Shown in pieces: positions 1 to 39,572 of a stretch of DNA of 39,572 nucleotides; position 1 is the stretch's first letter; each line of letters starts with the position of its first letter. The DNA comes from a virus. Lineage: Duplodnaviria; Heunggongvirae; Uroviricota; Caudoviricetes. Position numbers and translations under genes: made by a program. The notes below the pieces were generated by a model, which did no database searches, was not told where the DNA came from, and saw only the letters and a list, made by a program, of their open reading frames with translations. The DNA lies in the IMG/VR virus record IMGVR_UViG_2531839178_000021, positions 1-39,572 of that record; one strand, written 5' to 3'.

Positions 1-17
1 TTAAGCGCAGCTATTTA
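1..17. mobile_element. Terminal 15 bp of an IS630-family element whose body lies upstream of the window, plus TA target duplicate
   Basis: bp 1-15 ttaagcgcagctatt is the exact reverse complement of the left terminus (29888-29902) of the complete IS630-like copy in this window; TA follows at 16-17 as at that copy's junctions. Confidence 0.8.
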
Positions 18-894
18 GTATCCGTTGTAGCGTGATAATACTTCCTCCATTAATCATGAAATGAGTGGCAAAGCTGTGCCTTAGTGCATGTGTGGCTTGC
101 CCCATTGGCAAATCCGGTTTTATTGCTTTCATTGTTCGTCTGAAGCGAGGGTAATCAGCATCAGGGAATAAAAAACCTCGTTTGTTATCCGCGATCATTT
201 TGGCAACAGCCTCTGAGATCGGGACGGTGCGTGGTTTGTTTGTTTTCGTTTTAACAAACGTGACGCGGTTATGGATGATATTTTCTGCTTTCAAACGAGC
301 TGCTTCTCCCCAACGTGCTCCAGTACTCAGGCAAAGAATCGCAATCTTTTTGTTGTCGCCGTCAAGAGCAGCAAGCAGTAAGGCAATTTCTTCCTGCGTG
401 AGATAGCCTGTGTCTGGTTTTTCCTCCTTAAGCCTTTTTGTCCCTCTGATAGGGTGCTCACCAAAGAATAACTCCGCTTCAATCAGGGCTGTAAACATGC
501 CGCTAATACATGTTAAATCACGATTGATACTCGAAGGTTTAATACCCTGACTTCTTCGGGTGGCGCAGTACTGGCTGATAAGCGATTTCGTAATTTGAAA
601 TGCGCATGGGTCATTCGTTATTTTTGTGAAGATTTCAATTTTTCCAAGATTAGATTTCCCATGCTCTTCGTGTTTACCCTTTAAATCCCACCAGATCTGT
701 GTCAGCTCCGACAGACGTCGCTTGTCTGTTGGTTTTGATAGCCATTCTTTATTGTGGTGGTTGTACAACGTGTATTTCTCGAAAGCGACAGCTTCGCTTT
801 TCTTATCAAACTTCCTACGGATGCGTTTTCCATTACGTCCAGTAGGGCGGATGTCCACTTCATATCGACCATCATCGAGTTTTTTGATTGCCAT
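1..894 (-). pseudogene. int: P2-type tyrosine integrase, truncated at its 3' end by the IS630 insertion; last codons (..NSCA stop) are IS-derived and the C-terminal catalytic Tyr region is absent
   Basis: 297-codon ORF beginning MAIKKLDDGRYEVDIRPTG; ends ..ALRHSFATHFMINGGSIITLQRIL then IS terminal repeat; no downstream LGH..Y motif. Confidence 0.85.
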
Positions 895-1009
895 CAGAAA
901 ACCCTCCGAGTGGTGTGTTTTTTTGCGACTACTAATCGCTTTTTTCGTGGTGGCTGAAATTTAGCCACCAATAGTAGGCACTTGTGATGAATATATTCAC
1001 GATGAATTG

Positions 1010-1309
1010 TTAACCAGTCTTTTGACCGGAGTGGGGCGACGTTGTTTCGTTTTGCCCAAAGTGTGCGAGAGCGGGCGCAATTTGCCCGGACTCAGGAGCG
1101 ACCTGATTGGTCATGAACCATAAAGTGTATTTGGTGAATTGTGGGGTCTGCAGGATGTTCATCATGACATCTGTTGGAGGTGTTGAACGACCACTTTCAT
1201 AGTAACTCAGCGTGCCATACGGAACCCCTGTTAAATCAGCAAGTTGTTGTCTGCTCAAATACTCTGATTTTCGCATTAAGACTATCTTCTCGCTTATCGT
1301 GTTTGACAT
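1010..1309 (-). CDS. C: Immunity repressor C (99 aa)
   Basis: 99-aa ORF MSNTISEKIVLMRKSEYLSRQQLADLTGVPYGTL with HTH; divergent from cox, as in P2. Confidence 0.9.
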   Translation of the reverse strand: MSNTISEKIVLMRKSEYLSRQQLADLTGVPYGTLSYYESGRSTPPTDVMMNILQTPQFTKYTLWFMTNQVAPESGQIAPALAHFGQNETTSPHSGQKTG

Positions 1310-1423
1310 GGTGTTTAGATCTCAATAGTATTTAGTTTAGATGTAGATTGTTTGGTGCTTGGATGTGGGCACTAAAAGGCATTATAAGGCATTAAACGCA
1401 ATTCATGAGGGCTGGAGGACGAC
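1310..1423. promoter_or_regulatory. Divergent Pc/Pe promoter-operator region of the lysogeny switch
   Basis: 114-bp intergenic region between divergent C and cox; TAGAT-containing direct repeats at about 1314-1320, 1336-1342 and 1344-1348 are candidate C operator half-sites. Confidence 0.5.
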
Positions 1424-1699
1424 ATGAGCAAGCAAGTAACACTCATGACTGATGCGATTCCTTATCAGGAGTTCGCAAAACTAATAGGAAAATCGACAGG
1501 AGCGGTTCGTCGGATGATCGATAAAGGAAAGCTGCCTGTAATTGATATGACCGATCCACAATCAGCTTCAGGTCGTGCAGGTGAATATTGGGTATACCTT
1601 CCGGCATGGAATAACGGACTAAAACTGGCTTATGAAAGCCGCCCTAAAGAGATTCGTGACGGCTGGTTGATGTGGTTAGGTCTCGGTGAACCACGTTAA
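1424..1699 (+). CDS. cox: Cox (excisionase / repressor of Pc), 91 aa
   Basis: ORF MSKQVTLMTDAIPYQEFAKLIGKSTGAVRRMIDKGKLP; first gene of early operon. Confidence 0.9.
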   Translation: MSKQVTLMTDAIPYQEFAKLIGKSTGAVRRMIDKGKLPVIDMTDPQSASGRAGEYWVYLPAWNNGLKLAYESRPKEIRDGWLMWLGLGEPR

Positions 1700-1709
1700 G
1701 GAGAACCGT

Positions 1710-1880
1710 ATGAATGAGCCTCGTTGTATTGCTCAGTTATTGCGTAACGAAAGCCCCAGGGCGATTGACTTTACCATCACCCACGGGAAGGGACGCAAGG
1801 GAATCATTATCCGCACCAAAAAACAGAGTCCGTTAAAGAAGGCTCTGACCTTTCTGAAAAGCCGGAGGGTCTGGAAATGA
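1710..1880 (+). CDS. Small early protein (P2 orf78-like)
   Basis: ATG at 1710 preceded by AAGGAG; occupies the position between cox and B. Confidence 0.6.
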   Translation: MNEPRCIAQLLRNESPRAIDFTITHGKGRKGIIIRTKKQSPLKKALTFLKSRRVWK

Positions 1881-2179
1881 CAGTGATGACGCTCAATCTC
1901 GTTGAAAAACAGCCAGCAGCTATGCGCCGGATAATTGGCAAGCATCTTGCCGTCCCTCGCTGGCAGGATACATGTGATTATTATAATCAGATGATGGAGC
2001 GCGAACGGCTAACGGTTTGCTTTCATGCACAGTTAAAACAGCGTCACGCAACGATGCGTTTTGAAGAAATGAACGACGTCGAACGTGAACGACTGGTATG
2101 TGCAATTGATGAATTGCGTGGCGCATTCTCAAAACGCCGTCAGGTTGGCGCAAGTGAGCATGCATATATTAGTTTTTTA
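1877..2179 (+). pseudogene. B: Replication gene B, 5' part (codons 1-101), interrupted by IS insertion
   Basis: ORF MTVMTLNLVEKQPAAMRRIIGKHLAVPRWQDTCDYYNQ runs into IS terminal repeat at 2180; removing the IS and one TA copy joins it in frame to 3098-3295, giving 166 codons. Confidence 0.85.
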
Positions 2180-2239
2180 GGCTGTGTCCCTTAATCATCT
2201 GAGCTATAGTAACTGTCTGTTTACACAACATATTGAACT

Positions 2240-2689
2240 ATGGCTCGCTACGACCTTCCCGATGAGGCATGGACCATCATCAAGCCCCTGTTACCTCCTG
2301 AACCCGCCACACCACGGGCCGGACGCCCATGGGCTGAGCACCGTAAAATCATCAATGGCATGTTCTGGGTGTTATGTTCCGGTGCACCATGGCGCGATTT
2401 ACCCGAACGATATGGGTCATGGAAAACTGTTTATAACCGCTTTAACCGATGGTCAAAGTCAGGCGTGATTAATATTATTTTCAACAGGTTGCTTTCGCTA
2501 CTTGATGCAAACGGCTTTATTGACTGGTCTGCCACCGCGCTGGATGGCAGTAATATCCGGGCGCTGAAATGTGCCGCCGGTGCTCAAAAAAACATCCCGA
2601 TATCGACGGAGATAATGGGCTGGGTCGCTCTCGCGGCGGTTTTGGCACCAAAATCCATCTGGCAACAGACGGAAGTGGCCTCCCGTTAA
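2240..2689 (+). CDS. IS transposase OrfA (DUF4096-like N-terminal part)
   Basis: MARYDLPDEAWTIIKPLLPPEPATPRAGRPWAEHRKIINGMFWVLCSGAPWRDLPERYGSWKTVYNRFNRW; A7 run at 2586-2592 places OrfB in the -1 frame. Confidence 0.8.
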   Translation: MARYDLPDEAWTIIKPLLPPEPATPRAGRPWAEHRKIINGMFWVLCSGAPWRDLPERYGSWKTVYNRFNRWSKSGVINIIFNRLLSLLDANGFIDWSATALDGSNIRALKCAAGAQKNIPISTEIMGWVALAAVLAPKSIWQQTEVASR

Positions 2690-3084
2690 ATATCGTGCTA
2701 AGCCCCGGACAAGCTCATGAAAGCCAGTTCGCGCAACGACTTCTGGACGGGATTGGCGTTCAGCGTCAGAACGGCAGCATGAAACGCCGTGGACATGCGG
2801 TACTGGCTGATAAAGCGTATTCAGGGCGCGCATTGCGCAACGAGCTGAAAAATAACGGTATAAAGGCAGTAATCCCCCGAAAGTCAAATGAGAAAATGGC
2901 ATCGGATGGACGTGCACAGCTTGATCGTGATGCGTACTGCAATCGTAATGTCGTTGAACGGTGCTTTGGGCGGCTGAAAGAATATCGCCGCATCGCCACG
3001 CGTTACGACAAAACGGCGAGAAATTACCTGGCGATGGTGAAACTGGGCTGCATCCGACTCTTTTATCAACGCTTACGTAATTAA
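2569..3084 (+). CDS. IS transposase OrfB (DDE catalytic part), expressed as OrfAB fusion by -1 frameshift
   Basis: ...ADKAYSGRALRNELKNNGIKAVIPRKSNE...NRNVVERCFGRLKEYRRIATRYDKTARNYL, IS4/IS5-superfamily C-terminal signature. Confidence 0.8.
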   Translation: MCRRCSKKHPDIDGDNGLGRSRGGFGTKIHLATDGSGLPLNIVLSPGQAHESQFAQRLLDGIGVQRQNGSMKRRGHAVLADKAYSGRALRNELKNNGIKAVIPRKSNEKMASDGRAQLDRDAYCNRNVVERCFGRLKEYRRIATRYDKTARNYLAMVKLGCIRLFYQRLRN

Positions 3085-3097
3085 GGGACACAGCCTA

Positions 3098-3295
3098 ACA
3101 GTCAGTCAGCGTCGTACTTTATTTATGCACGCCGGATTGACAGAAAAAGAATTTAATCAGCCATACTGGCGAATTAATGAAGAGTCATGTTACTGGCGTG
3201 ATGCTTTATTCCGTGCATTACGTGAATTATTCAGCCTGTTTGAGTATGCACCGACAATTCTGACGTCGGTAAAACCAGAGCAATATCTGCATTAA
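3098..3295 (+). pseudogene. B: Replication gene B, 3' part (65 codons) downstream of IS
   Basis: in-frame continuation TVSQRRTLFMHAGLTEKEFNQPYWRINEESCYWRDALFRALRELFSLFEYAPTILTSVKPEQYLH, stop 3293-3295. Confidence 0.8.
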
Positions 3296-3358
3296 GTAAT
3301 TAACCAGAGTTTTTAACGCACTTAATTGTGCGGGGCTTCTTTTTGCCTGGAGAAAGTC

Positions 3359-3583
3359 ATGCATACAGTTTCTGAAAATCAGTGCGGTAAATACGCATTA
3401 CTGCTGCAACAGGCCAGAACCGAAGCACAGGCCGACGCGGCGACGCGCTTTTCTTCTCATCTTGACGTCATGATTCGCCACATCACAAAGGCGGAGTTAT
3501 CCCGCGTGGAGATAGTCGAGCTGCTCAGTCAGGAGTCGGAAAAATTTCACAATATCGGATTGTCTCGCGGGGAGGTACTTTGA
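3359..3583 (+). CDS. Small early-operon protein (P2 orf80-like)
   Basis: ATG 3359 with GGAGAAAG upstream; [24 protein letters not shown]. Confidence 0.6.
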
Positions 3584-3882
3584 TGTCCTGCTCTCATTCA
3601 GTTGTATTACTGAATAACGCCTTAAAAATCGCCGTTATGAAAAATGGCGATTTGTCTCTTATTCAACTTTGTCTTGATAAAGAAAAACGCGACATCACTG
3701 AATCTGTTATCGCGATTTATCAGAATGAATTAAACCTCCTGTCTGATGTGGTCAATTTACTTGTTAAACGCGCTGTATTCCACAAGCAAATTTCCTCAGT
3801 GGATGAACTGACAAAATTAACGACAGAACTTGCCAGTTATTGCGCTGATGTATACAGGAAACTTAACGATAAAAGGAGCTGA
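3580..3882 (+). CDS. Small early-operon protein (P2 orf81-like)
   Basis: 100-aa ORF, start overlaps previous stop (ATGA). Confidence 0.6.
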
Positions 3883-3884
3883 TA

Positions 3885-4109
3885 ATGCCGGACAACGTAG
3901 ATTTTATTCAGGAACAACAGGCTGAATTACTGGAGCGCCAGATTAACGCGGCAAGGGTAAAACATTGCGGTGCTTCTGCGCTGGTTTGCGAAGAGTGTGA
4001 CGCGCCAATACCTGCTGCCCGTCGTGCGGCTTATCCGTCAGCCACGCGTTGTGTTTCCTGTCAGTCAGTCTTTGAAGCAAAAAATAAACATTACCGGAGA
4101 ACGGCATGA
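3885..4109 (+). CDS. Small C4 zinc-finger protein (TraR/DksA-like; P2 orf82-like)
   Basis: CEECDAPIPAARRAAYPSATRCVSCQ, a Cx2C..Cx2C motif. Confidence 0.65.
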   Translation: MPDNVDFIQEQQAELLERQINAARVKHCGASALVCEECDAPIPAARRAAYPSATRCVSCQSVFEAKNKHYRRTA

Positions 4110-4381
4110 GTATTCGTATTGAAATTGGCGAACGTTATGTCGTTACCAGTGACAGCTTCCAGTTTATTCTCCACGAGAAAAAGAGAGCGGAAAGCGGTAA
4201 AAACGCCGGTCAGGAATGGCTGGCGGTGGTTGGTTATTACCCGAAATTAAGCCAGCTTGTTTCCGGCCTGATGCATCACGATATTCTGACCGGAAGCGCA
4301 AAGTCTTTTGCTGATTTAAACGCGCAGGTTGAGCAACTCAGCAAGCGTTGTTCAGAGGCTTTTGGCTCATATGGCCGTTAA
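4106..4381 (+). CDS. Small early-operon protein (P2 orf83-like)
   Basis: 91-aa ORF MSIRIEIGERYVVTSDSFQFILHEKKRAESGKNAGQEW; translationally coupled. Confidence 0.6.
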   Translation: MSIRIEIGERYVVTSDSFQFILHEKKRAESGKNAGQEWLAVVGYYPKLSQLVSGLMHHDILTGSAKSFADLNAQVEQLSKRCSEAFGSYGR

Positions 4382-6653
4382 AGCCTCCGGGCGTTTTGTC
4401 CCTCCGTCAGCATTTGCTGCAGGCACCGGTAAGGCGTTTACCGGTGCTTATGCATGGAACGCGCCACGCGAGGCTGTCGGGCGCGAAAGACCCTTTACAC
4501 GTGACGAGATGCGTCAGGTGCAAGGTGTTTTATCCACGATTAACCGCCTGCCTTACTTTTTGCGCTCGCTGTTTACTTCACGCTATGACTACATCCGGCG
4601 CAATAAAAGCCCGGTACACGGGTTTTATTTCCTCACATCCACTTTTCAGCGTCGTTTATGGCCGCGCATTGAGCGTGTGAATCAGCGCCATGAAATGAAC
4701 ACCGACGCGTCGTTGCTGTTTCTGGCAGAGCGTGACCATTATGCGCGCCTGCCGGGAATGAATGACAAGGAGCTGAAAAGGTTTGCCGCCCGTATCTCAT
4801 CGCAGCTTTTCATGATGTATGAGGAACTCTGCGATGCCTGGGTGGATGCGCATGGCGAAAAAGAATCGCTGTTTACGGATGAGGCGCAGGCGCATCTGTA
4901 TGGTCATGTTGCTGGCGCTGCACGTGCTTTCAATATTTCCCCGCTTTACTGGAAAAAATACCGTAAAGGATAGATGACCACGAGGCAGGCATATTCTGCC
5001 ATTGCCCGTCTGTTTAACGATGAGTGGTGGACTCATCAGCTTAAAGGCCAGCGTATGCGCTGGCATGAGGCGTTATTGATAGCTGTCGGGGAGGTCAATA
5101 AAGACCGTTCTCCTTATGCCAGTAAACATGCCATTCGTGATGTGCGTGCGCGCCGTCAGGCAAATCTGGAGTTTCTTAAATCGTGTGACCTTGAAAACAG
5201 GGAAACCGGCGAACGCATCGACCTTATCAGTAAGGTGATGGGCAGTATTTCTAATCCTGAAATTCGCCGGATGGAGCTGATGAACACCATTGCCGGTATT
5301 GAGCGTTACGCCGCCGCAGAGGGTGATGTGGAGATGTTTATCACGCTGACCGCGCCGTCAAAGTATCACCCGACACGTCAGGTCGGAAAAGGCGAAAGTA
5401 AAACCGTCCAGCTTAATCACGGCTGGAATGATGAGGCATTTAATCCGAAGGATGCGCAGCGTTATCTCTGCCGTATCTGGAGCCTGATGCGCACGGCATT
5501 CAAGGATAATGATTTACAGGTCTACGGTTTGCGAGTCGTCGAGCCACACCACGACGGAACGCCGCACTGGCATATGATGCTTTTTTGTAATCCACGCCAG
5601 CGTAACCAGATTATCGAAATCATGCGTCGCTACGCGCTCAAAGAGGATGGCGACGAAAGAGGAGCTGCGCGAAACCGTTTTCAGGCAAAACACCTTAACC
5701 GGGGCGGTGCTGCGGGATATATCGCGAAATACATTTCAAAAAACATCGACGGCTATGCACTGGATGGTCAGCTCGATAACGATACCGGCAGGCCGCTGAA
5801 AGACACCGCCGCGGCTGTTACTGCATGGGCGTCAACGTGGCGCATCCCGCAATTTAAAACGGTTGGCCTGCCGACAATGGGGGCTTACCGTGAACTACGC
5901 AAATTGCCTCGCGGCGTCAGTATTGCTGATGAGTTTGACGAACGCGTCGAGGCTGCACGCGCTGCCGCAGACAGTGGTGATTTTGCGTTGTATATCAGCG
6001 CGCAGGGTGGGGCAAATGTTCCGCGCGATTGTCAGACTGTCAGGGTTGCCCGTAGTCCGTCGGATGAAGTTAACGAGTACGAGGAAGAAGTCGAGAGAGT
6101 GGTCGGCATTTACGCGCCGCATCTCGGCGCGCGTCATATTCATATCACCAGAACGACGGACTGGCGCATTGTTCCGAAAGTGCCGGTCGTTGAGCCTTTG
6201 ACTTTAAAAAGCGGCATCGCCGCGCCTCGGAGTCCTGTCAATAACTGTGGAAAGCTCACCGGTGGTGATACTTCGTTACCGGCTCCCACACCTTCTGAAC
6301 ACGCCGCAGCAGTGCTTAATCTGGTTGATGACGGTGTTATCGAATGGAATGACACGGAGGTCGTGAGGGCGCTCAGGGGCGCATTAAAACACGGCCTGAG
6401 AAGACCAAACCGTCAGCAAAGAAACGGAAGCCCGTTAAAACCGCATGAAATAGCGCCATCGGCCAGACTGACCCGGTCGGAAAGAATGCAAATTACCCGT
6501 ATCCGCGTTGACCTTGCTCAGAACGGTATCAGGCCGCAGCGATGGGAGCTTGAGGCGCTGGCGCGTGGTGCGACCGTAAATTACAACGGGAAAAAATTTA
6601 CGTATCCGGTCGCTGATGAGTGGAGTTGGTTTTATTGTTATTCAGAGCAATAA
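4371..6653 (+). pseudogene. A: Replication initiation protein A (rolling-circle nickase), 761 codons, interrupted by an in-frame TAG at 4971-4973
   Basis: ORFs 4329-4973 and 4974-6653 are in the same frame separated only by TAG; combined span from ATG 4371 matches the recalled 761-aa length of P2 gpA; HUH-like region ..PHWHMMLF.. and GYIAKYISK present. Confidence 0.8.
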
Positions 6654-6769
6654 ACATCTGATTTAATTTGTTGCATAATAGTAAAATTGCTGTTTATCTG
6701 CATGTGTTAACTATTGATAATTATGTTGCTAATAATGTGTGCAAATTTATACTGAAAAAGGTGAAAACG

Positions 6770-6922
6770 ATGAATGATATCTTTGTTCTTACAAGGGAAG
6801 AGCTTGAAACACTAGATTATAGTGTTTTTATGCATATACCAGTTACATTTCATGCACATAAAATAAAAAATATCTGGATGGGATTGCTGAATCATCAGAA
6901 AACCCCAAAGAGAAAAAATTAG
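6770..6922 (+). CDS. Cargo locus ORF segment 1 (frame 2), possibly the N-terminus of one larger gene
   Basis: ATG 6770 with AAGGTG 7 nt upstream; low-GC; frame-1 ORF opens at 6862 overlapping this segment across A6 runs (6865-6870, 6913-6918). Confidence 0.45.
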   Translation: MNDIFVLTREELETLDYSVFMHIPVTFHAHKIKNIWMGLLNHQKTPKRKN

Positions 6923-6936
6923 CATCTCTTTTTGGT

Positions 6937-7242
6937 ATGCTATATAGTTTCAATTTGCAAGTTGTTAACAACACTCCATCATTTGAACCCCAAATGATTT
7001 GGGGTAATAAAAGATCAATATTGCCTGAAGATTTTGATGAGCAGGTGAATGACTGTCTTTTATATGTTTCTCAAAAAATAACCAATCCATTTTTGTTATC
7101 AAGAATATATGATGTTGTTTGGTGTAATAATCGGAAAAATAAAGACGTGGCAATTAAAGCAATTGATTCCTATGCTGAAATGCTAAATATAGCAATTGAA
7201 AAGCTAATAATAAAAACGAAAGCATGGATGAAAGTGATTTAA
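6937..7242 (+). CDS. Cargo locus ORF segment 2 (frame 1), hypothetical
   Basis: 101-aa ORF MLYSFNLQVVNNTPSFEPQMIWGNKRS...; overlaps segment 3 by 19 nt across an A5 run (7212-7216). Confidence 0.45.
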   Translation: MLYSFNLQVVNNTPSFEPQMIWGNKRSILPEDFDEQVNDCLLYVSQKITNPFLLSRIYDVVWCNNRKNKDVAIKAIDSYAEMLNIAIEKLIIKTKAWMKVI

Positions 7243-8600
7243 ATTGCTTTATTTTTGCTCGTGATTATATTGCTAGGGCTTTGCACATTAATAAAATGGT
7301 CTACCCTAGAAAATCAGAAGGAAACATGGCGATTAAAAATGCCATTCATTCTCTTTATAGTATTCAAAATGAAAGATTAATCTTTGAAGGTTTCAATAAT
7401 TTGACTTGGTTTATGGTGCGTGATTTTGATGGGTATAATCTGCAGTATGCGGAAAATGCTGAGAAGATGGCTGAGCAGCATAAAGATAAAAAATATTATG
7501 ATGCTGTAAAATCACTTTATATGACAAGTGCAGTTATTTATGAAAAAAATGGTGAGTATGAACGTGCCAAGAGATGTAAACTGGCATCTGCAAATATTAC
7601 TATTAAAGTTGCAACAGATCGACCTGATAATATGGGTAAGATCTCTTGGTTAAGAACAGCTATCTCTGAATTAAGACAGTACGGTGGTGATAGCCAACAG
7701 ATAGAAGATTTAAAGGAACAACTTGCTAATTTGAGAGAAGAAGTAAGGAGTGAATATGTCACTTTAAGCCATTCTATTGATATTAGTGACTTGGTTGCTG
7801 AAAGTGAAAAAAAACTGACGGGGCGTTCTTTGCCCGATATATTCAAAGTTTTAATGCGTGAAACACCGATTGAAAATATTGAAAGCATGAGGGAACAAGT
7901 TTTAAGATTATCAGAAAAAAGTTTATTCTCTAGTTTTGTTGGAACAGAAATTAATGATGAGAGTGGGCGTAAGATATATACAATCCCGCCGTTGGATAAT
8001 AAAAAAGATATGAGTGATGATGTTGTTATTGATCAATATCTAAGAAATTTCGAGATTACTCATAAGATTTTTGTAAACGGTGTCTTTGAACCTGCTCGCT
8101 ATGTACTTTCTCAAGAACATGGCTTGACGTTGTCAACATTCGTTAAATTGGTTACAACTAGTCCAATTGTCAAGCCGGAGTTTAGGGAGATTTTTAATTT
8201 GGGCTTTTACAAATTATGGCAGGGAGATTACATCAGTGCAGCTTATCTTTTAATACCACAAATGGAGGGTATGGTTCGTTATTATTATGAGCTTAGTGGA
8301 AAGGATGCTACTAGATATTTGGATAAGGGATTAGAGGAGTCAACAAGTATTTCTCAGCTTCTAGATAAATGCAGAGATGATTTGGAAAGTATCTTTTCTA
8401 AAAATCTTGTTTTGACTATCGATGTTCTTTTTAACAGAAAGAGTGGGGCAACCTTAAGACATAAATTAGCACATGGTAATTTATATACTAATGCTTGTTA
8501 CGATGAAACAACGACATATGCATGCATCCTGATTTTCTTTCTGTGTGCTTATCCTCTCCTACCATATTTTGATACTGTTTTTGAACAGGGCTCTGTTTGA
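7224..8600 (+). CDS. Cargo protein, 458 aa, unknown function with C-terminal HEPN-like R-x4-H motif; candidate abortive-infection/defence effector
   Basis: low-GC ORF; motif RHKLAHG encoded at 8457-8477; coiled-coil-like EDLKEQLANLREEVRSEY; no Walker A, so not an Old-type ATPase. Confidence 0.6.
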   Translation: MDESDLNCFIFARDYIARALHINKMVYPRKSEGNMAIKNAIHSLYSIQNERLIFEGFNNLTWFMVRDFDGYNLQYAENAEKMAEQHKDKKYYDAVKSLYMTSAVIYEKNGEYERAKRCKLASANITIKVATDRPDNMGKISWLRTAISELRQYGGDSQQIEDLKEQLANLREEVRSEYVTLSHSIDISDLVAESEKKLTGRSLPDIFKVLMRETPIENIESMREQVLRLSEKSLFSSFVGTEINDESGRKIYTIPPLDNKKDMSDDVVIDQYLRNFEITHKIFVNGVFEPARYVLSQEHGLTLSTFVKLVTTSPIVKPEFREIFNLGFYKLWQGDYISAAYLLIPQMEGMVRYYYELSGKDATRYLDKGLEESTSISQLLDKCRDDLESIFSKNLVLTIDVLFNRKSGATLRHKLAHGNLYTNACYDETTTYACILIFFLCAYPLLPYFDTVFEQGSV

Positions 8601-8751
8601 TAACGTATACGTTGAGGCATAAAACCTATGCATACTTAGCTGCATCAATTTGCACGAGGTATTTCAGTATGCATTTTCTGCGTAATAGTAGGGATTGCTT
8701 GGTTTGGTAGTTGTAATTCAACTGCATTCAAACCGACCCATGAAGCGGGCG

Positions 8752-8770
8752 GGCGAGGCGGGGAAAGCAC
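8752..8770. other. cos: cos site (19-nt cohesive end sequence of P2-type phages)
   Basis: GGCGAGGCGGGGAAAGCAC matches the recalled P2 cohesive end; located between the A-side cargo and Q as expected. Confidence 0.7.
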
Positions 8771-8912
8771 TGCGCGCTGGCGGTGGTGCTGATTTTATTT
8801 TTTCAGCGTCTCAGCGCGTCGTGACGGCGCTTAGTCTGCCCGTTGGGGTGTTGGTGTGTCTGCGGGCTGTTTTGTGCTGTGGTGAGCGTGTGAGGGCGTG
8901 ATGACGGGATGT

Positions 8913-8934
8913 AAAAAAGCCGCCCGCAGGCGGC
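8913..8934 (-). terminator. Rho-independent terminator downstream of Q
   Basis: minus strand GCCGCC-tgcg-GGCGGC followed by TTTTTT. Confidence 0.6.
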
Positions 8935-8939
8935 GATGT

Positions 8940-9929
8940 TCAGCCGTTGTCAGTGTCCAGTGAGTAGTTTTTAAAGCGGATGACCTCCTGACCGAGCCAG
9001 CCGTTTATCTCGCGGATCCTGTCCTGTAACGGGATAAGCTCATTGCGGACAAAGACCTTTGCCACTTTCTCAATATCACCCAGCGACCCGACGTTCTCCG
9101 GCTTGCCGCCCATCAACTGAAAGGGGATGCGGTGCGCGTCAAGCAGGTCAGCGGCGCTGGCTTTTTTGATATTAAAAAAATCGTCCTTCGTTGCCACTTC
9201 ACTGAGCGGGATAATTTTAATGCCGTCGGCTTTTCCCTGTGGGGCATAGAGAAACAGGTTTTTAAAGTTGTTGCGGCCTTTCGACTTCACCATGTTTTCG
9301 CGAAGCGTTTCGATATCGTTGCGATCCTGCACGGCATCAGTGACGTACATGATATATCCGGCATGAGCGCCGTTTTCGTAATACTTGCGGCGGAACAGCG
9401 TGGCCGACTCATTCAGCCAGGCAGAATTAAGGGCGCTGAGATATTCCGGCAGACCGTACAGCTCCTGATTAATATCCGGCTCCAGCAGGTGAAACACGGA
9501 TCCGGGCGCGAAGGCTGTCGGCTCGTTAAAGGACGGCACCCACCAGTAAACATCCTCCTCCACGCCACGGCGGGTATATTTTGCCGGTGAGGTTTCCAGT
9601 CTGATGACCTTACCGGTGGTGCTGTAACGCTTTTCCAGAAACGCATTACCGAACACCAGAAAATCCAGCACAAAGCGGCTGAAATCCTGCTGGGACAGCC
9701 ACGGGTGCGGGATAAACGTTGAAGCCAGAATATTACGTTTGACGTAAATCGGTGAGCTGTGATGCACGGCAGCACGCAGGCTTTTTGCCAGACCGGTAAA
9801 GCTGATTGGTGGCTCATACCATCTGCTGTTACTGATGCATTCGACGTAATCCAGAATGTCACGGTGGTCGAGTACCGGCACCGGCTCACCAAAGGTGAAT
9901 ACCTCCATTTTCGGGGCGCTGGCGGTCAT
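8940..9929 (-). CDS. Q: Portal protein Q; N-terminus frame-broken (probable true start ATG at 9973)
   Basis: 329-aa ORF MTASAPKMEVFTFGEPVPVLDHRDILDYVECISNSRWYEPP; upstream ATG at 9973-9971 with GGAG 8 nt upstream, out of frame by one base across a 5-nt homopolymer (plus-strand T-run 9960-9964). Confidence 0.85.
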   Translation of the reverse strand: MTASAPKMEVFTFGEPVPVLDHRDILDYVECISNSRWYEPPISFTGLAKSLRAAVHHSSPIYVKRNILASTFIPHPWLSQQDFSRFVLDFLVFGNAFLEKRYSTTGKVIRLETSPAKYTRRGVEEDVYWWVPSFNEPTAFAPGSVFHLLEPDINQELYGLPEYLSALNSAWLNESATLFRRKYYENGAHAGYIMYVTDAVQDRNDIETLRENMVKSKGRNNFKNLFLYAPQGKADGIKIIPLSEVATKDDFFNIKKASAADLLDAHRIPFQLMGGKPENVGSLGDIEKVAKVFVRNELIPLQDRIREINGWLGQEVIRFKNYSLDTDNG

Positions 9930-10034
9930 TGTTTTTGCCGCAGGTTGCGGTGTTTTCCCTTTTTCTTGCTCATCAGTAAAACTCCAGAATGGTGGATGTC
10001 AGCGGAGTGCTGATACCGGCGGTGAGTGGCTCAT

Positions 10035-11744
10035 TTAACAGGGCGTGCATGGTCGCCCAGGCGAGGTCGGCGTGGCTGGCTTCCTCGCTGCGGCTGGCCT
10101 CATAGGTGGCCTGCGTCCGCTGCTGGTCATGGTCTTGCGGATAGCCATGAACGAGCTGGTGATGTCGGTGGCGCTGACGTCATATTCCAGACAGCCACGG
10201 CGGATAACGTCTTTTGCCTTGAGCACCATTGCGGTTTTCATTTCCGGCGTGTAGCGGATGTCGCGCGCGGCGGGATAGAACGAGCGCACAAGCTGGAACA
10301 CGCCGACACCGAGGCCGGTGGCATCAATACCGATGTATTCGACGTTGTATTTTTCGGTGAGTTTGCGGATGGATTCCGTCTGGGTGGCAAAGTCCATACC
10401 TTTCCACTGGTGACGCTCAAGTATTCTGAATTTGCCACCGGCCACCACCGGCGGTGCCAGTACCACGCATCCGGCGCTGTCGCCACGGTGTGACGGGTCG
10501 TAACCAATCCATACCGGTCGGGAGCCGAACGGATTGGCGGCAAACGGCGCATAGTCTTCCCATTCTTCCAGCGTGTCGACCATGCAGCGTTGCAGCTCCT
10601 CGAACGGGAATACCGATGCCTTGTCGTCAACAAATTCACACATGAACAGGTTTTTAAAATCGTCGGCGCTGTTTTCGCGTTTAAGCTGCTCAATGTCGAA
10701 CAGCGTGCAGCCACCTTTCAGGGCGTCCTCAATGGTGACAATCTGCCGCCACTGGCCGTCCGCACAGAGAAGCCCACCGGCAAGGGCGTTATGACTGATG
10801 TCGATTTCCACGCGTTCGGCGGCGCTGGCGCGTCCCCGGTTAAACAGTTCACCCGACCAGAACGGGTAGGCGTCGTGCGCCAGCGTGGACGGGGTGGAGA
10901 AATAGGTCGAGCGCAGGTGACTCTGTGAGGCCATACCTGATGCCATCTTACGCAGTACCTGAAAATTCGGGATCCAGAACATCTCGTCGACGTACAGGTC
11001 GCCGTTATGGCTCTGCGCGGTGTTGGAGTTGGTGCCGAGAAAAATCAGTTTTGCGCCGTTATTGCCCAGGACAATCGGGTCACCGGTCAGGTCAACGTCA
11101 ACCAGCCGGGCAAAGGCGATGATGTATTCGCGGAACACATACGCCTGTGTTTTACTGGCCGACAGAAAAATCTGGTTATGACCGGTTTTCAGGGCGCGCA
11201 GCAGCGCCTCGCGGGAAAAATAAAACGTCGCGCCAATCTGGCGGGATTTCAGGATATCGCGGATGCGGTGCTCAAGCCCGGCGCGATACCAGTGCAACTG
11301 ATATTCGAAAGACTGCTCAAAGAAAATCTGCTCCAGCTTTTCGATGGCTTCGTCACTGAAAAAATTCTTTTTCGGTTTGCGACGCCCGCCTTTGTTGCGG
11401 TTAGCGACGTTCGGATTAAGGTCTGCCTCGTTGCCGGTCTGACTGTAGCGGTTGACCCGCGCCAGTCGTTCAATCTGGCGTCCCAGCAGGTCAATTTCCT
11501 TGAAGTCACCGCCGGTTTTCTGCGGTTTGATAATGAGCTGGGTCAGCCGCGCTTCCAGACTCATTTCGACACGGCTGATGGGGGCAACGCTGTCCCAGCC
11601 GTCGCGCTGTTTCCAGCTCTGCACCGTCGGGCGTTTCATCTGCAACATGGCGGCAATCTGCGGCACGGAAAACCCCTGCCAGTACAGCAGCGCCGCCTGA
11701 CGACGCGGGTCGTGCAAAAGAGTGGTGTCTGTGGTGATGGTCAT
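10035..11744 (-). CDS. P: Terminase large (ATPase) subunit P; 3' end frame-broken
   Basis: MTITTDTTLLHDPRRQAALLYWQGFSVPQIAAM...; C-terminal ~30 codons are Pro/Arg-rich, while the adjacent frame gives ..YEASRSEEASHADLAWATMHALLNEPLTAGISTPLTSTILEFY ending in TGA overlapping the upstream Q ATG (TGATG). Confidence 0.85.
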   Translation of the reverse strand: MTITTDTTLLHDPRRQAALLYWQGFSVPQIAAMLQMKRPTVQSWKQRDGWDSVAPISRVEMSLEARLTQLIIKPQKTGGDFKEIDLLGRQIERLARVNRYSQTGNEADLNPNVANRNKGGRRKPKKNFFSDEAIEKLEQIFFEQSFEYQLHWYRAGLEHRIRDILKSRQIGATFYFSREALLRALKTGHNQIFLSASKTQAYVFREYIIAFARLVDVDLTGDPIVLGNNGAKLIFLGTNSNTAQSHNGDLYVDEMFWIPNFQVLRKMASGMASQSHLRSTYFSTPSTLAHDAYPFWSGELFNRGRASAAERVEIDISHNALAGGLLCADGQWRQIVTIEDALKGGCTLFDIEQLKRENSADDFKNLFMCEFVDDKASVFPFEELQRCMVDTLEEWEDYAPFAANPFGSRPVWIGYDPSHRGDSAGCVVLAPPVVAGGKFRILERHQWKGMDFATQTESIRKLTEKYNVEYIGIDATGLGVGVFQLVRSFYPAARDIRYTPEMKTAMVLKAKDVIRRGCLEYDVSATDITSSFMAIRKTMTSSGRRPPMRPAAARKPATPTSPGRPCTPC

Positions 11745-11917
11745 GAATACCTCGCCGTGATGAATACACGGCAAGGCTACTGAGTCGCGCCCCGCGATTC
11801 GCTAAGGTGCTGTTGTGTCAGTGATAAGCCATCCGGGACTGATGGCGGAGGATGCGCATCGTCGGGAAACTGATGCCGACATGTGACTCCTCTAATCACT
11901 ATTCAGGACTCCTGACA

Positions 11918-12772
11918 ATGGCAAAAAAAGTCTCAAAATTCTTTCGTATCGGCGTTGAGGGTGACACCTGTGACGGGCGTGTCATCAGTGCGCAGGATAT
12001 TCAGGAAATGGCCGAAACCTTTGACCCGCGTGTCTATGGTTGCCGCATTAACCTGGAACATCTGCGCGGCATCCTGCCTGACGGTATTTTTAAACGTTAT
12101 GGCGATGTGGTCGAACTGAAGGCCGAAAAGATTGATGACGATTCGGCGCTGAAAGGCAAATGGGCGCTGTTTGCGAAAATCACCCCGACCGATGACCTTA
12201 TCGCGATGAACAAGGCCGCGCAGAAGGTCTACACCTCAATGGAAATTCAGCCGAACTTTGCCAACACCGGCAAATGTTATCTGGTGGGGCTGGCCGTCAC
12301 CGATGACCCGGCAAGCCTCGGCACGGAATATCTGGAGTTCTGCCGCACGGCAAAACACAACCCTCTGAACCGCTTCAAATTAAGCCCTGAGAACCTTATT
12401 TCAGTGGCAACGCCCGTTGAGCTGGAATTTGAAGACCTGCCTGAAACCGTGTTCACCGCCCTGACCGAAAAGGTGAAGTCCATTTTTGGCCGCAAACAGG
12501 CCAGCGATGACGCCCGCCTGAATGACGTGCATGAAGCGGTGACCGCTGTTGCTGAACATGTGCAGGAAAAACTGAGCGCCACTGAGCAGCGCCTCGCTGA
12601 GATGGAAACCGCCTTTTCCGCACTTAAGCAGGATGTGACTGACAGGGCGGATGAAACCAGCCAGGCATTCACCCGCCTGAAAAACAGTCTCGACAGCACC
12701 GAAAGTCTGACCCAGCAGCGCCGCAGCAAAGCCACCGGCGGTGGCGGTGACGCCCTGATGACGAACTGCTGA
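11918..12772 (+). CDS. O: Capsid scaffolding protein O
   Basis: MAKKVSKFFRIGVEGDTCDGRVISAQDIQEMAETFDPRVYGCRINLEHLRG; divergent from P. Confidence 0.85.
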   Translation: MAKKVSKFFRIGVEGDTCDGRVISAQDIQEMAETFDPRVYGCRINLEHLRGILPDGIFKRYGDVVELKAEKIDDDSALKGKWALFAKITPTDDLIAMNKAAQKVYTSMEIQPNFANTGKCYLVGLAVTDDPASLGTEYLEFCRTAKHNPLNRFKLSPENLISVATPVELEFEDLPETVFTALTEKVKSIFGRKQASDDARLNDVHEAVTAVAEHVQEKLSATEQRLAEMETAFSALKQDVTDRADETSQAFTRLKNSLDSTESLTQQRRSKATGGGGDALMTNC

Positions 12773-15346: not shown

Positions 15347-15640
15347 ATGACGAGTCCCGCACAGCGCCACATGATGCGGGTCTCGGCAGCGATGACCGCG
15401 CAGCGGGAAGCCGCCCCGCTGCGACATGCAACTGTCTATGAGCAGATGCTGGTTAAGCTCGCCGTAGACCAGCGCACACTGAAAGCAATTTATTCAAAAG
15501 AGCTGAAGGCCGCGAAAAAACGCGAACTGCTGCCGTTCTGGTTGCCGTGGGTGAATGGCGTGCTGCCGCACGGCACCGCCGTCGAACTGCCCGACGTTCA
15601 GACCGCGCCCGTGGCTGAAACTGTCAATCTGTGGGAGTAA
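15347..15640 (+). other. 97-codon ORF, probably an in-frame fusion remnant of terminase small subunit M (5' part) and tail protein X (3' end) left by deletion of most of M, all of L and most of X
   Basis: only ~300 bp separate N stop (15343) from holin Y start (15644), where P2 order N-M-L-X-Y needs ~1.4 kb; the M and X assignments of the two halves are from memory. Confidence 0.5.
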
Positions 15641-23775: not shown

Positions 23776-24682
23776 AGTTCAATATGTTGTGTAAACAGAC
23801 AGTTACTATAGCTCAGATGATTAAGGGACACAGCCTAGTGTTTTTTATGTTGAAGCCAGAGCTTTCCCTGTACAAATTCTTGCAGAGGAAGGGCTAACGG
23901 TTATTGTTCCGACAGAGGATTATGTCGTCGGTCAAACGACATATAAGTGGGGGGCAACTAATCCCGCTACAGAAAGCACGAACGCACAGGCTATTCTGGA
24001 TTTTAAAAATGGACGTGGTTATTACTGTTCACATCCATTTATTTCCAGCCTTTCAGGAAATGCTGCAACAGCAACGAAGTTAGCGAACGCAAGAAATATT
24101 AATGGTGTCAGATTTGATGGCTCTGCCGATATAAATATTAATACACTGGTATCCAGAAACCGTGTTACTGCATTAGGTGGGAGCGTAAAGGGGACACCAG
24201 GTATTCAGATGTATGAGGCATACAACAATGGCTACCCAACAGCCTATGGTAATGTGCTTCATCTCACTGGCGTAACCGCAGTAGGAGAGGGTGAGTTACT
24301 TATTGGTTGGAGTGGAACCAGCGGTGCTCATGCTCCGGCATATATTCGTTCCCGACGAGATACCACAGATGCTAACTGGTCTGGATGGGCGCAACTATAT
24401 ACAACTGCTCATAAACCCTCAGCGGGAGATGTTGGTGCATACACCAAAACTGAGTCAGATTCACGTTATGTGAGAGACATGCGGCTGGGCGGTGCATCTA
24501 CATATAAACCAGCAAATAATGGTACTACATGGACGCATCAGGCTCCGTCAGGTTGCGTATATACCGGCATTATTGTTCAGGATACCGGCTCAAACTCTGC
24601 CGATAACATTGGTGGCGTATATTACAGACCGGTGCAGAAATACATTAACGGGACATGGTATAACGTGGTGCAGGTATAATTT

Positions 24683-25259: not shown

Positions 25260-25298
25260 GTCCGCTCTGTGCCAGGAGCAGACATTGCCAACGTTATG
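25260..25298 (+). repeat. ~39-bp direct repeat, copy A (partner at 27932-27970)
   Basis: gtccgctctgtgccaggagcagacattgccaacgttatga versus gttcgctttgtgccaggagcggacgttgccagcattgag, ~85 percent identity. Confidence 0.7.
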
Positions 25299-25677
25299 AC
25301 CCTCGATTACATCAAAGAGCCCTATAGCCGAAACCTGCACCATAGCCATCTCTGTAGAATTCGTCCTAGGGGCTTTTAACAGACCTAGTTGTATGGATCG
25401 GAAGGAAATATTAAAGCTCAAGGCGTCAGTCCAGTGCTGTCCTGTTTGCTTACCACACGAAAGAGTGCTGCTTGTACCTGCTAACTAATGGTATGCGGAG
25501 TGAGGGGGGCGGGTAGAACCAAAAGCACTTACTACGTGTGGCGCTCTCCTGGAAGAGGAGACGTCGAAGTGATAACGCTAACAACAGTCTTACTGGTGAT
25601 GCAAATAATGCTAGCTGGTCTGGTTGCCATCAAGCAACTGACCGGACGCCCGTAAGGGATGGAGGAACTTGATTAAA

Positions 25678-25707
25678 GGCAGGGGGGTTACCTCCCCTGC
25701 CTTTTTC
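25678..25707 (+). terminator. Strong rho-independent terminator
   Basis: GGCAGGGG-ggttacct-CCCCTGCC followed by TTTTT; lies ~470 nt downstream of G stop with no ORF of 60 aa or more between. Confidence 0.75.
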
Positions 25708-25769
25708 GTTTCTGCGCAAGTTAGCTCTGTTATTATAATCCTTACTCACACTGTAAGGACATAGTTCAA

Positions 25770-26033
25770 ATGACTGAATGGCTTAATGCACATTTTGGTG
25801 CAGACGCAGCTACCTATCTTAGCTTATTAGTCGGCGTACTGGCACTGTTTGGTATTGGGGGCGGTGTTACATATAGAATCAGACAGCAAAACAACATAAA
25901 ACAGAAGGCAAAGAAAACCGAGGGTGATGTGAACCAGGCCGGGCGGGATATTAATCAGACCACCAACGTTTACCACACATCCAATGAATCTACTGAGGAC
26001 CCTGTAAAAAAAAGCAAGATGAACATGATCTGA
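25770..26033 (+). CDS. Membrane-anchored hypothetical protein, N-terminal segment (single TM helix)
   Basis: TATAAT at 25734-25739; MTEWLNAHFGADAATYLSLLVGVLALFGIGGGV; ORF ends just after an A8 run (26006-26013) where the next ORF's frame opens. Confidence 0.55.
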   Translation: MTEWLNAHFGADAATYLSLLVGVLALFGIGGGVTYRIRQQNNIKQKAKKTEGDVNQAGRDINQTTNVYHTSNESTEDPVKKSKMNMI

Positions 26034-26056
26034 AGATAATCGACCAGATCCTTGAA

Positions 26057-26452: not shown

Positions 26453-26545
26453 AGGCGCAGTGGGTCAGCGAACACCGCAACGACAGAACCGCGTAAGCGG
26501 TAAAATCAGCTTGTTAACTGGCGAGTTTATAGCCGTCCCTCCGGG

Positions 26546-29887: not shown

Positions 29888-31041
29888 AATAGCTGCGCTT
29901 AATACCGCTACACTTTTGCCAGTCCATGTTTGCCTCCGGGGAATGGGCTGACGGTTTCCATAAAATGGCGAACTTTTTTCAACAGTTGCCACATTGAGCG
30001 GCACTGATGATTACGCGTTATTGTGTCGTGAAGTGCCTGCCATAGCCGTTCAACATGATTCACCCATGGCGAGTAAACCGGCTGATAAATGACCCTGAAC
30101 TTCGGGTTCTCCTTCAGCCAGCTCTGTGTTTCCCGGCTTTTGTGGATAATGTAGTTGTCCACGATCAGCGTGATGGTTTTCGCCCGACGCTATGTCGCTT
30201 TAAGCCGCTTCAGCAGGCTGATGAACAGCGCCGAACTTTTTGCTGTTGCCGCCCACATAGCTGACTTTACCTGTCCCGCTGTGCAGCGCTCCGGCCAGAT
30301 AATATTTTTCATTCTGTCCCGGCGTGACCACCCGTTTTTGCTGTCCGCGCAGTTGCCAGTCCGCACCGATTTTGGGATGAAGATGGATATCCACTTCATC
30401 TTCATAAAAGACCGGATGCTCTGCGCTGCATTCGTCCAGTGCTTTATGGATTGCTGCCATCTTTTCATCTTTATGCGGGTCACGGATACGCAGAGTTGGC
30501 GCAGCCCTTCGCCACACAATCCCCGCAGACGGCAACCAGCGGCGAACGGTTCCGGCATTTAACTGGCAACCGGTTATCTCATTGATTTTTATTGCCAGCA
30601 GTTCTGTACTCCAGCGTGAACGCTGGTAGCCAAAGTCGCCGGGAGAATGTTTTACCAGCTCACGTAACAGTGTGCAGATATGCTCAAACGGCCAGCGACG
30701 GGCACGCCCGGCAGGTAATGATTTCAGTCCCTCAACACCCGACTGCGTGAACCAGTTAATCCAGCGTCCAACAGAGGAACGGGCGCAGCAGAGCGTTCTG
30801 GCAACGTCGCTGACACGGTCGCCCCGGTGCAGCATCAGCATGGCAGTCAGTCTGCGGGCATAATTTTTATCGTGTGTTTTATGGATGGCTTTCTGCATCA
30901 GGCGTCGTTCGTCACGGGAAATTGGTGCTATGATCGGCATTGCTCAGTCCGGTTGGTGATTTGTTTTGATTTGGCGATTGATCAGATCGCACAATCCGGG
31001 CTAAGTTCCCTCAAAATGATCTACTATTCCGCGCAGCTATT
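29888..31041 (-). mobile_element. IS630-family insertion sequence (1154 bp), TA duplication within a CTAG target
   Basis: terminal repeats aatagctgcgc (29888-) and gcgcagctatt (-31041); TA at 29886-29887 and 31042-31043 flanked by C and G. Confidence 0.85.
29908..30940 (-). pseudogene. IS630 transposase, split into two ORFs (30200-30940 and 29908-30162) by a frame break
   Basis: N-part MPIIAPISRDERRLMQKAIHKTHDKNYARRL.. and C-part ..NYIIHKSRETQSWLKENPKFRVIYQPVYSPWVNHVERLW together approximate the recalled single 343-aa IS630 transposase. Confidence 0.75.
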
Positions 31042-38039: not shown

Positions 38040-38066
38040 AAAAAATAAGCCCGTGTAAGGGAGATT
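38040..38066. other. attR: attR: 27-bp P2-type attachment core at the prophage/host junction
   Basis: AAAAAATAAGCCCGTGTAAGGGAGATT matches the recalled P2 att core; lies between ogr and the host gene. Confidence 0.7.
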
Positions 38067-38210: not shown

Positions 38211-39572
38211 TCACTTACCGTGGGGGTTACGCGTGGTTTCCCCGGAGAAATTACGCATTAGCAGCGCGTAATTTAGCTCAAGATCCTGCGGGACCGGGAG
38301 CCACACAGTATAACCATCGCCTGGTGCGACCGGCATAGCTTCGCCTTTGGCGTTTTCCATGTGCTCAAGGGTAAAGTTAATGTTGCCTTGCGGCGTCATC
38401 AGCTCAAGACTGTCGCCAACGGAGAATTTATTTTTCACCGCTACCGCTGCGAGGTCCCCCTTGCGCTCACCGGTAAACTCACCAACAAACTGCTGGCGGT
38501 CAGAAACTGAATAACCGTATTCGTAGTTCTGATAATCGTCGTGAGTATGACGACGCAGGAAACCTTCGGTATAGCCACGATGCGCCAGACCTTCCAGAGT
38601 TTCCAGCAGGCTGGTATCGAACGGTTTTCCCGCAGCGGCGTCATCGATAGCTTTGCGGTAAACCTGTGCGGTGCGTGCGCAATAGTAGAAAGATTTGGTA
38701 CGACCTTCGATTTTCAGCGAATGCACGCCCATTTTGGTCAGGCGTTCTACATGGGCGATGGCGCGCAGATCTTTCGAGTTCATGATGTAAGTGCCGTGCT
38801 CATCTTCAAACGCGGTCATATACTCGCCCGGACGCTGGGCCTCTTCGATCATAAACACTTTGTCGGTTGGCGCGCCGATACCCAGCGTCGGCTCAACATT
38901 TTGCACCGGAATCGGCTCGTACTTGTGTACGATGTTGCCAACGTCATCTTCTTTCCCTTCCTGGACGTTGTACTCCCAGCGGCAGGCGTTGGTGCAGGTA
39001 CCCTGGTTCGGATCGCGCTTGTTGATATAGCCAGAGAGCAGGCAGCGACCGGAGTAGGCCATGCACAGTGCGCCGTGAACGAAGATCTCGATCTCCATAT
39101 CCGGCACCTGATTGCGGATCTCTTCAATCTCTTCAAGCGACAGCTCGCGAGAGAGGATCACGCGGGTCAGGCCCATTTGCTGCCAGAATTTCACCGTCGC
39201 CCAGTTTACGGCGTTAGCCTGCACCGAGAGGTGGATCGGCATTTCAGGGAAGTGCTCACGCACCAGCATAATCAGCCCTGGATCGGACATAATCAGCGCA
39301 TCCGGCCCCATTTCCACCACCGGTTTCAGGTCACGGATAAAGGTTTTCAGCTTGGCGTTGTGCGGTGCAATGTTGACCACGACATAAAACTTTTTCCCCA
39401 GCGCGTGGGCTTCATTGATGCCGAGCTGAAGATTTTCGTGGTTGAATTCGTTGTTGCGCACACGTAGGGAGTAACGCGGCTGGCCCGCATAAACAGCATC
39501 TGCGCCATAAGCGAAAGCGTAACGCATATTTTTCAGCGTTCCCGCCGGGGAAAGGAGTTCCGGTTTAAACAT
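38211..39572 (-). CDS. yegQ: Host peptidase U32-family protein (YegQ-like), complete 453 aa
   Basis: MFKPELLSPAGTLKNMRYAFAYGADAVYAGQPRYSLRVRNNEFNHENLQLGINEAH; start codon at the window end. Confidence 0.8.
   Translation of the reverse strand: MFKPELLSPAGTLKNMRYAFAYGADAVYAGQPRYSLRVRNNEFNHENLQLGINEAHALGKKFYVVVNIAPHNAKLKTFIRDLKPVVEMGPDALIMSDPGLIMLVREHFPEMPIHLSVQANAVNWATVKFWQQMGLTRVILSRELSLEEIEEIRNQVPDMEIEIFVHGALCMAYSGRCLLSGYINKRDPNQGTCTNACRWEYNVQEGKEDDVGNIVHKYEPIPVQNVEPTLGIGAPTDKVFMIEEAQRPGEYMTAFEDEHGTYIMNSKDLRAIAHVERLTKMGVHSLKIEGRTKSFYYCARTAQVYRKAIDDAAAGKPFDTSLLETLEGLAHRGYTEGFLRRHTHDDYQNYEYGYSVSDRQQFVGEFTGERKGDLAAVAVKNKFSVGDSLELMTPQGNINFTLEHMENAKGEAMPVAPGDGYTVWLPVPQDLELNYALLMRNFSGETTRNPHGK

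Follow-up and report, generated by a model that had tools for sequence, protein, structure and literature searches.

A copy of IS630, an insertion sequence common in Shigella, has split the integrase gene (int) of a P2-like prophage and removed catalytic residues of the encoded enzyme, among them the catalytic tyrosine; we propose that the prophage cannot therefore excise by its own Int and that the insertion was one step in the decay of this element (probability of the whole reading about 0.93). The stretch of DNA analysed, here called the window, is 39,572 nucleotides long. IS630 transposed into the TA of the lone CTAG in int; the host of the prophage is Shigella boydii 965-58 or a strain nearly identical to it, in which the prophage occupies the cyaR/yegQ-yegR attachment site. 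The gene is split after codon 293, its upstream part now reading N-S-C-A and TAA from the IS inverted repeat, and the 297-aa product, deprived of His295, Tyr304 and the C-terminal tail, would form no covalent intermediate and hence support no self-excision. Such an insertion would be a step in ordinary IS-driven prophage decay.

An IS630 end borders the truncated integrase gene

The features on which the argument starts are the following.

1..15, plus strand: last 15 bases of an IS630 end (transposase-distal inverted repeat), matching exactly the end of the internal IS630 copy; the element interrupts int
16..17, no strand: TA target-site duplication from the original CTAG, also the last two bases of the Leu293 codon CTA
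1..894, minus strand: truncated P2-type integrase ORF, 293 native codons plus 4 IS-encoded codons (NSCA) and TAA at 1-3
29888..31041, minus strand: second IS630 copy, 1,154 bp, with TA at 29886-87 and 31042-43 and a CTAG target; transposase broken by Y250* and an additional T (+1)

The window opens with TTAAGCGCAGCTATT-TA, which corresponds to 15 bases of the IS630 end (29888-29902) and the flanking TA. As the initial annotation had reported, the first 15 bases are an exact IS630 terminus followed by TA; indeed, positions 1-17 (TTAAGCGCAGCTATTTA) match 29886-29902 at 17 of 17 positions as the reverse complement, and the other terminus of the internal element (31027-31043) matches the same 17-mer with 2 mismatches. 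The internal element was also found where it had been placed, at 29888-31041, with 1,154 bp and a TA on either side (ccTA before it and TAgg after it). For this 17-mer the chance expectation is 0.10 matches at up to 3 mismatches, and three matches were reached in 0 of 100 shuffles.

The int stop codon, a TAA contributed by the IS end (positions 1-3), finishes at base 1 of the window, and the far edge of the window (39570-39572) is the ATG of trhP/yegQ. The window is thus cut at gene boundaries, the int stop at one side and the trhP/yegQ start at the other. Because of this trimming to gene calls, no more than 15 bases of the IS can be seen and attL falls outside; the rest of the element that interrupts int lies upstream of the window, and its full 1,153 bp are found at positions 10880-12032 of a contig described below, L002.

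Since only 15 bases of the putative IS are inside the window, one could suppose that the match is due to chance or to an edge artefact, and that int ends there for another reason. We consider this vanishingly improbable: the 17-mer is exact where even matches with up to 3 mismatches have an expectation of 0.10, every intact homologue departs from the window exactly at position 16, and L002, identical to the window where they overlap, carries the entire IS630, both TA duplications and the 3' remainder of int. The chance reading was rejected on account of this contig.

The upstream sequence in an identical contig

An exact look-up of the 297-aa product led to contig AKNA01000058.1 of Shigella boydii 965-58 (L002); the same product is also present in several short-read assemblies. 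The reverse complement of L002 1-10,894 equals window 1-10,894 with 0 mismatches, and because identity is complete over these 10,894 bp, we treat L002 as the same locus of the same or a near-identical strain and let it stand in for the upstream sequence, which is therefore read in L002, beyond 10.9 kb of identity, and not in the window itself.

Moving upstream, L002 carries IS630 (1,153 bp), a second TA, 135 bp of int, the region of the Cox sites and P' arm, a 27-bp att core, yegR and yegS. More specifically, it reads ...CAACGGATAC-TA, then IS630 (10880-12032), then TA-GGTCACACGCGGATTGAGCAAACTATGGTTTACGCT..., so that the TA is present on both sides of the IS, with CAACGGATACTA before it and TAGGTCACACGC after it, and the uninterrupted gene has ..GGATACTAGGTCAC... 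at this place. The missing 3' end of int is contained in these 135 bp (GHTRIEQTMVYAHF...STVE-stop), which keep register with the intact genes of E. coli and P2. The IS630 body, the remainder of int and attL, which the initial annotation had proposed to look for upstream, were all three found in L002; the two outcomes that it had named as contradicting its view, an upstream sequence other than IS630 or an int that continues intact, were both absent from this contig. The junction between int and IS630 was also present in the independent short-read assemblies L003 and L004.

IS630 is a multicopy element and the short-read contigs L003, L004, L006 and L008 stop about 10-30 bases from the junction, as could happen if collapsed IS repeats had been joined into an assembly chimera while the real int is intact. 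Several observations make this extremely improbable. L002 contains both junctions, with a perfect TA duplication at CTAG and int continuous across the element; the same left junction occurs in independent assemblies from at least 10 sequencing samples; and the target-site signature of IS630 is not expected from a chimera. The chimera was rejected because L002 has both junctions with the TA duplication and because the junction recurs independently.

The truncated integrase lacks two catalytic residues

The int ORF (1..894, minus strand) encodes 297 aa with the C-terminal end ...GGSIITLQRIL-NSCA-stop, in which the stop and the four codons before it are read from the IS end, in agreement with the earlier claim that the ORF closes four IS-encoded codons after ITLQRIL. 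The product was deposited for Shigella boydii 965-58 as EIQ29146.1, under the name 'phage integrase family protein'. Residues 1-293 are identical to those of an intact E. coli integrase of 337 aa and the sequences then diverge, the intact protein continuing with GHTRIEQTMVYAHFAPEYLQDAISLNPLRGGTEVESVHTVSTVE. E. coli ARS-C301 (L001) has the gene uninterrupted, with 337 codons, annotated as 'site-specific integrase' and adjoining yegR and yegS. The native part of int in the window differs from the intact E. coli allele by 1 nucleotide in 879 and has no further defects. By megablast, the int region was found in 1,682 of 5,426 complete E. coli genomes, and the best alignments all start at window position 16.

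The intact allele is about 99% identical to the bacteriophage P2 integrase of PDB entries 5C6K and 5DOR (5C6K over residues 46-337) and is clearly related to the HP1 integrase (1AIH). The truncated product, whose retained residues show the same identity of about 99% to 5C6K, still belongs by its domains to the P2 Int subfamily, with Int_N (PF24624, 9.7e-25) at residues 57-156 and the catalytic domain Phage_integrase (PF00589, 1.1e-14) covering profile positions 2-155 of 172; in the intact protein the latter extends over positions 2-169, so that positions 156-169 are lost.

Which residues are lost with them was read from an alignment to XerD and HP1 integrase. The P2-type motifs H269-x-x-R272, G-H295 and Y304 align with HVLRH...LLGH...IYTH of XerD and with HVLRH...ILGH...RYAHF of HP1, and Tyr304 of the intact integrase falls on the tyrosine of the XerD segment TTQIYTHV and of the HP1 segment TMRYAHF. 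The aligned tyrosines, XerD Tyr279 and HP1 Tyr315, are the nucleophiles of these two enzymes. We found no residue number for the catalytic tyrosine of P2 Int in open papers, and Tyr304 is for this reason assigned by aligning the protein with the structures of XerD and HP1 integrase. It lies 11 residues past the break, which bears out the initial annotation in placing the break upstream of the catalytic tyrosine.

Int loses His295, its nucleophile Tyr304 and the C-terminal tail to the truncation, and keeps the N-terminal arm-binding region, the core-binding domain, Arg194, His269 and Arg272. A complete tyrosine recombinase active site is therefore absent, the second His and the nucleophilic Tyr being missing. 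On this sequence evidence, the truncated int appears to be a pseudogene of the tyrosine recombinase family, P2 Int subfamily, and not a functional member of it. We infer that the 297-aa Int would be unable to form the covalent 3'-phosphotyrosyl intermediate; following the established mechanism of tyrosine recombinases, it would cleave no strand, and the prophage would thus be unable to excise with its own Int.

Both attachment sites are intact

The right end of the prophage and its host flank are in the window, with the following features.

38040..38066, minus strand: 27-bp core of attR, with the same sequence as the attL core of L002 and the attP core of P2
38043..38128, minus strand: CyaR sRNA gene (Rfam RF00112, 100.7 bits), its 3' terminator coming from the att core
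38211..39572, minus strand: host gene trhP (yegQ) (NCBIfam NF011996, 876 bits); the window stops on its ATG

The 27-bp core is AATCTCCCTTACACGGGCTTATTTTTT, and the attL core is at L002 12249-12275. On the P2 map, the IS insertion falls between 24597 and 24598, and the P' arm (24470-24496), the Cox sites (24399-24472) and the core (24356-24382) are all on the att side of it. Beyond the IS, the P' arm, the Cox sites and the last 135 bp of int are intact. The claim that the left attachment site is displaced beyond the IS was thus confirmed in L002: attL is intact and 1,155 bp farther from the prophage body, its core at the extrapolated position -1380, so that the real end of the prophage on this side is about 1.38 kb outside the window. 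The window itself contains an intact attR, and from core to core the prophage measures about 39.4 kb, compared with 33.6 kb for P2.

The terminator hairpin and U-tract of CyaR coincide with the 27-bp P2 att core (38040-38066) and, as the core serves as the 3' terminator, the prophage end regenerates the terminator of the sRNA. On the host side of attL, toward yegR (L002 12276-12345; L001 2180-2260), a degenerate stretch resembling the P2 P arm (..ATCCCTGGTCAC..CATTGACCACATCGA..) is present in both E. coli and Shigella, and may be left over from an earlier P2-type element in this place.

The initial annotation had concluded that the prophage is probably unable to excise. This holds for excision by its own Int, as judged from the loss of His295 and Tyr304; with both att sites intact, a compatible Int supplied in trans might still act. 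The proposed excision PCR after induction would be a weak test, because P2-type prophages are not SOS-inducible, mitomycin C included, their repressors not being cleaved in the SOS response.

We accordingly weighed whether the insertion is real and the prophage nevertheless remains excisable, either through a P2-type Int in trans or through a precise removal of IS630 that restores int. The two 27-bp cores, both arms (P and P'), the regions for IHF and Cox and the cox gene are all intact, and P2-type integrases are common in this species group (the 1,682 matching genomes of 5,426 in E. coli); the donor of Int could be another prophage or a superinfecting phage. Against this, no second int was found within 49.6 kb (window plus L002), the transposase of the IS630 copy is truncated (Y250*), the loss of an IS does not normally restore its target precisely, and the excised circle of about 39.4 kb would be without functional A, B, N, M, L and X. 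We regard continued excisability as unlikely. Reversion in particular is unlikely because the IS630 in int has Y250* and is not autonomous.

The truncated Int could also have been kept for a new role, for example by binding DNA in a dominant-negative manner and so preventing related P2-type phages from integrating or excising. It retains the arm-binding and core-binding regions (Int_N 57-156), its ORF is downstream of an intact C repressor gene, and the native part has no defects beyond its single difference in 879 nt. A recent insertion equally predicts such low divergence, however, and the surrounding prophage decays with no sign of selection, which makes a retained function very unlikely. 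The reading of int as a gene split and inactivated by IS630 is the one we retain.

The prophage carries several other lesions

Collinear blocks with P2 at 96-99% identity, in the order int-C-cox-B-A ... Q-P-O-N ... tail genes-ogr and ending in the 27-bp att cores, extend over the prophage. Features other than int that bear on its condition are listed here.

1010..1309, minus strand: P2 C-type immunity repressor, 99 aa, apparently intact (ORF, HTH_3 Pfam match in L002, 98.8% DNA identity to P2 C, collinear)
1424..1699, plus strand: cox, excision directionality factor, 91 aa, apparently intact (Phage_Cox Pfam match, collinear with P2)
2180..3095, plus strand: IS5-family element in replication gene B (break of P2 collinearity at 26759/26760; NCBIfam IS5 family transposase in two ORFs)
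4971-4973: in-frame stop in gene A, which splits A into ORFs of 200/214 aa and 559 aa
12846..14271, plus strand: IS4-family element, 1,426 bp, directly behind the start codon of N (capsid gene), where P2 4082-4094 is duplicated (13 bp)
near 15560-15565: junction of a 1.26-kb deletion of P2 5376-6631 (M 3' end, all of L, X 5' end)
26571-27794, minus strand: further IS4-family transposase

The essential gene set is incomplete, as B, A, N, M-L-X and int are all damaged. On its sequence, the prophage appears dead or defective, P2-like (Peduovirus-type) by gene order and not a viable phage. Since it has several other inactivating lesions, the loss of excision is over-determined and largely moot; the break in int is one lesion among many.

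The same IS5-family element that is in B (2180-3095, with a 171-aa DDE ORF) also splits the host gene gatZ (L002 18253-20432), about 8 kb upstream of the window, and its presence at both places illustrates the IS load of this genome. Other regions depart from P2 in their content. At 6937-8600 (plus strand), cargo takes the place of P2 orf91/tin/old; its two overlapping ORFs, of 101 aa (DUF7380) and 458 aa, jointly match the candidate defence system PDC-S39 (profile positions 63-143 and 141-583 of 595), and by this match the cargo looks like a frameshifted single-gene defence system. A variable region at 25287-31121 replaces P2 fun(Z) and contains an IS4-family transposase and unknown ORFs of 131 and 261 aa; within it, a 250-aa protein with an HNH-endonuclease/PDC-M68A-like N-terminus (29064-29816, minus strand) adjoins the second IS630. 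Finally, at 8938-11774, the portal Q (329 vs 344 aa) and the terminase P (569 vs 590 aa) are shorter than in P2, L003 and L006, and the alignment to L003 has two gaps in the Q/P block, suggesting indels near the Q/P junction.

A nonsense codon shared by the two IS630 copies

The copy in int is 1,153 bp long and, in L002, is bounded by imperfect terminal inverted repeats; its ends share AATAGCTGCGC (the first 11 of 11 bases), then diverge and then resume. Its insertion junctions read ..GGATACTA on one side of the IS and TAGGTCAC.. on the other, where the uninterrupted gene has CTAG. It differs by 6 mismatches in 1,153 bp (99.5% identity) from an E. coli copy, which was named by PGAP 'IS630-like element IS630 family transposase', is flanked by CTA and TAG, and encodes an intact transposase of 343 aa with HTH and DDE_3 domains.

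Homology to the IS630 transposase is clear from NF033545 (1.8e-42), and in both copies of the locus the protein carries Y250* inside the DDE_3 domain. In the copy in int, codon 250 is changed from TAC to TAG and N188H is present in addition; the copy at 29888-31041 has the same TAG codon and an extra T that shifts the frame, hence its 1,154 bp compared with 1,153 bp. Both copies are IS630 by descent and non-autonomous, with no intact transposase encoded. That a defective IS630 inserted twice implies either that it was mobilised in trans or that one copy converted the other. In P2 itself (L005), a 169-bp stretch between G and fun(Z) (15455-15621) shares 72% identity with the transposase-proximal end of IS630 (window 30860-31028), and may be an old scar of the IS630 family in this variable region.

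The P2-type int contains a single CTAG (P2 24596-24599) among its 53 TA dinucleotides, and IS630 sits in the TA of this CTAG; the second copy in the window is likewise inserted in a CTAG, between CTA and TAG. CTAG is scarce in P2, with 13 occurrences in 33,593 bp compared with about 131 expected from base composition. The preference of IS630 for the TA in 5'-CTAG-3' is the finding stated in the title of Tenzen & Ohtsubo 1991, as cited in PMC2170065, and TA duplication and cut-and-paste transposition are documented for the IS630 family in PMC2170065.

Further insertions at the CTAG of int

Among the 5,426 complete E. coli genomes, no record covered at least 80% of the int::IS630 junction query in either orientation. 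An orientation-neutral junction 26-mer gave 0 matches both in the species-representative genomes of GTDB and in the metagenome contigs of JGI. Apart from a few draft assemblies and SRA runs, the int::IS630 allele is rare.

The product predicted for the opposite orientation of the IS (293 native residues plus NSCAE, 298 aa) was found as an exact sequence. It corresponds to contigs L006 (10868-10904), L007 (8322-8456) and L008 (1744-1781), from three samples, in which int runs at the same TA into the opposite end of the IS, AATAGCTGCGCGGAATAGTAG... These three contigs represent at least 2 different P2-like backbones, with intact B and A genes. The L007 element is identical to IS630 at 109 of 120 positions, and the element of L007 and L008 is about 91% identical to it. 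L003 has the IS in the same orientation as the window, and thus the same product, on a different backbone again; its int shows no difference and, of the 27 IS bases present before the contig stops, 1 is changed.

The opposite orientation, the different backbones and an element only about 91% identical imply at least 3 independent insertions of the IS630 family at one int site, and repeated hits at this TA are expected from the target preference of IS630. One may go further and speculate that the single CTAG of the P2-type int is a recurrent landing site for the IS630 family, whose hits would repeatedly turn P2-like prophages, with anti-phage cargo in their variable regions, into immobile chromosomal islands; we hold this extension to be doubtful and mention it tentatively.

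Comparison with known systems

All parts of the present case belong to categories already known, namely IS630, the P2 integrase, a P2-like prophage at cyaR/yegQ-yegR and IS decay in Shigella, and no new mechanism is involved. For annotation, EIQ29146.1 is the product of a pseudogene and attL is about 1.4 kb outside the window; prophage callers that trim to gene boundaries miss attL here. The locus otherwise offers a clean textbook case of the TA-in-CTAG specificity of IS630 and of the stepwise fixation of a prophage by ISs in Shigella.

With respect to P2 integrase (NP_046786), residues 1-293 are essentially P2 Int, and the attP-type core, the P' arm and the Cox sites are of P2 type too; the difference is that NSCA stands in place of the last 44 residues (G294-E337) in the truncated product. 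The element in int resembles the IS630 of Shigella sonnei (IS630/Tc1/mariner superfamily) in its length of 1,153 bp, its imperfect repeats, its insertion at TA in CTAG and, by homology, its HTH plus DDE_3 transposase gene; it differs by Y250* and N188H, and the second copy by the same TAG plus the additional T.

The cryptic P2 remnant ogrK-yegZ of E. coli K-12 occupies the same site between yegQ/cyaR and yegR, presumably cannot leave it either, and is a short deletion derivative. In contrast to the K-12 remnant, nearly the whole genome persists here (about 39.4 kb), disabled by ISs, a nonsense codon and a 1.26-kb deletion.

A further parallel is the pseudogenisation by ISs described for Shigella (Hawkey et al. 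2020, PMC7373316; Seferbekova et al. 2021, PMC8072062). As there, elements of several kinds interrupt genes, in our case IS630, IS4- and IS5-family elements within one locus. We see no difference of substance, and the prophage is another instance of the same process.
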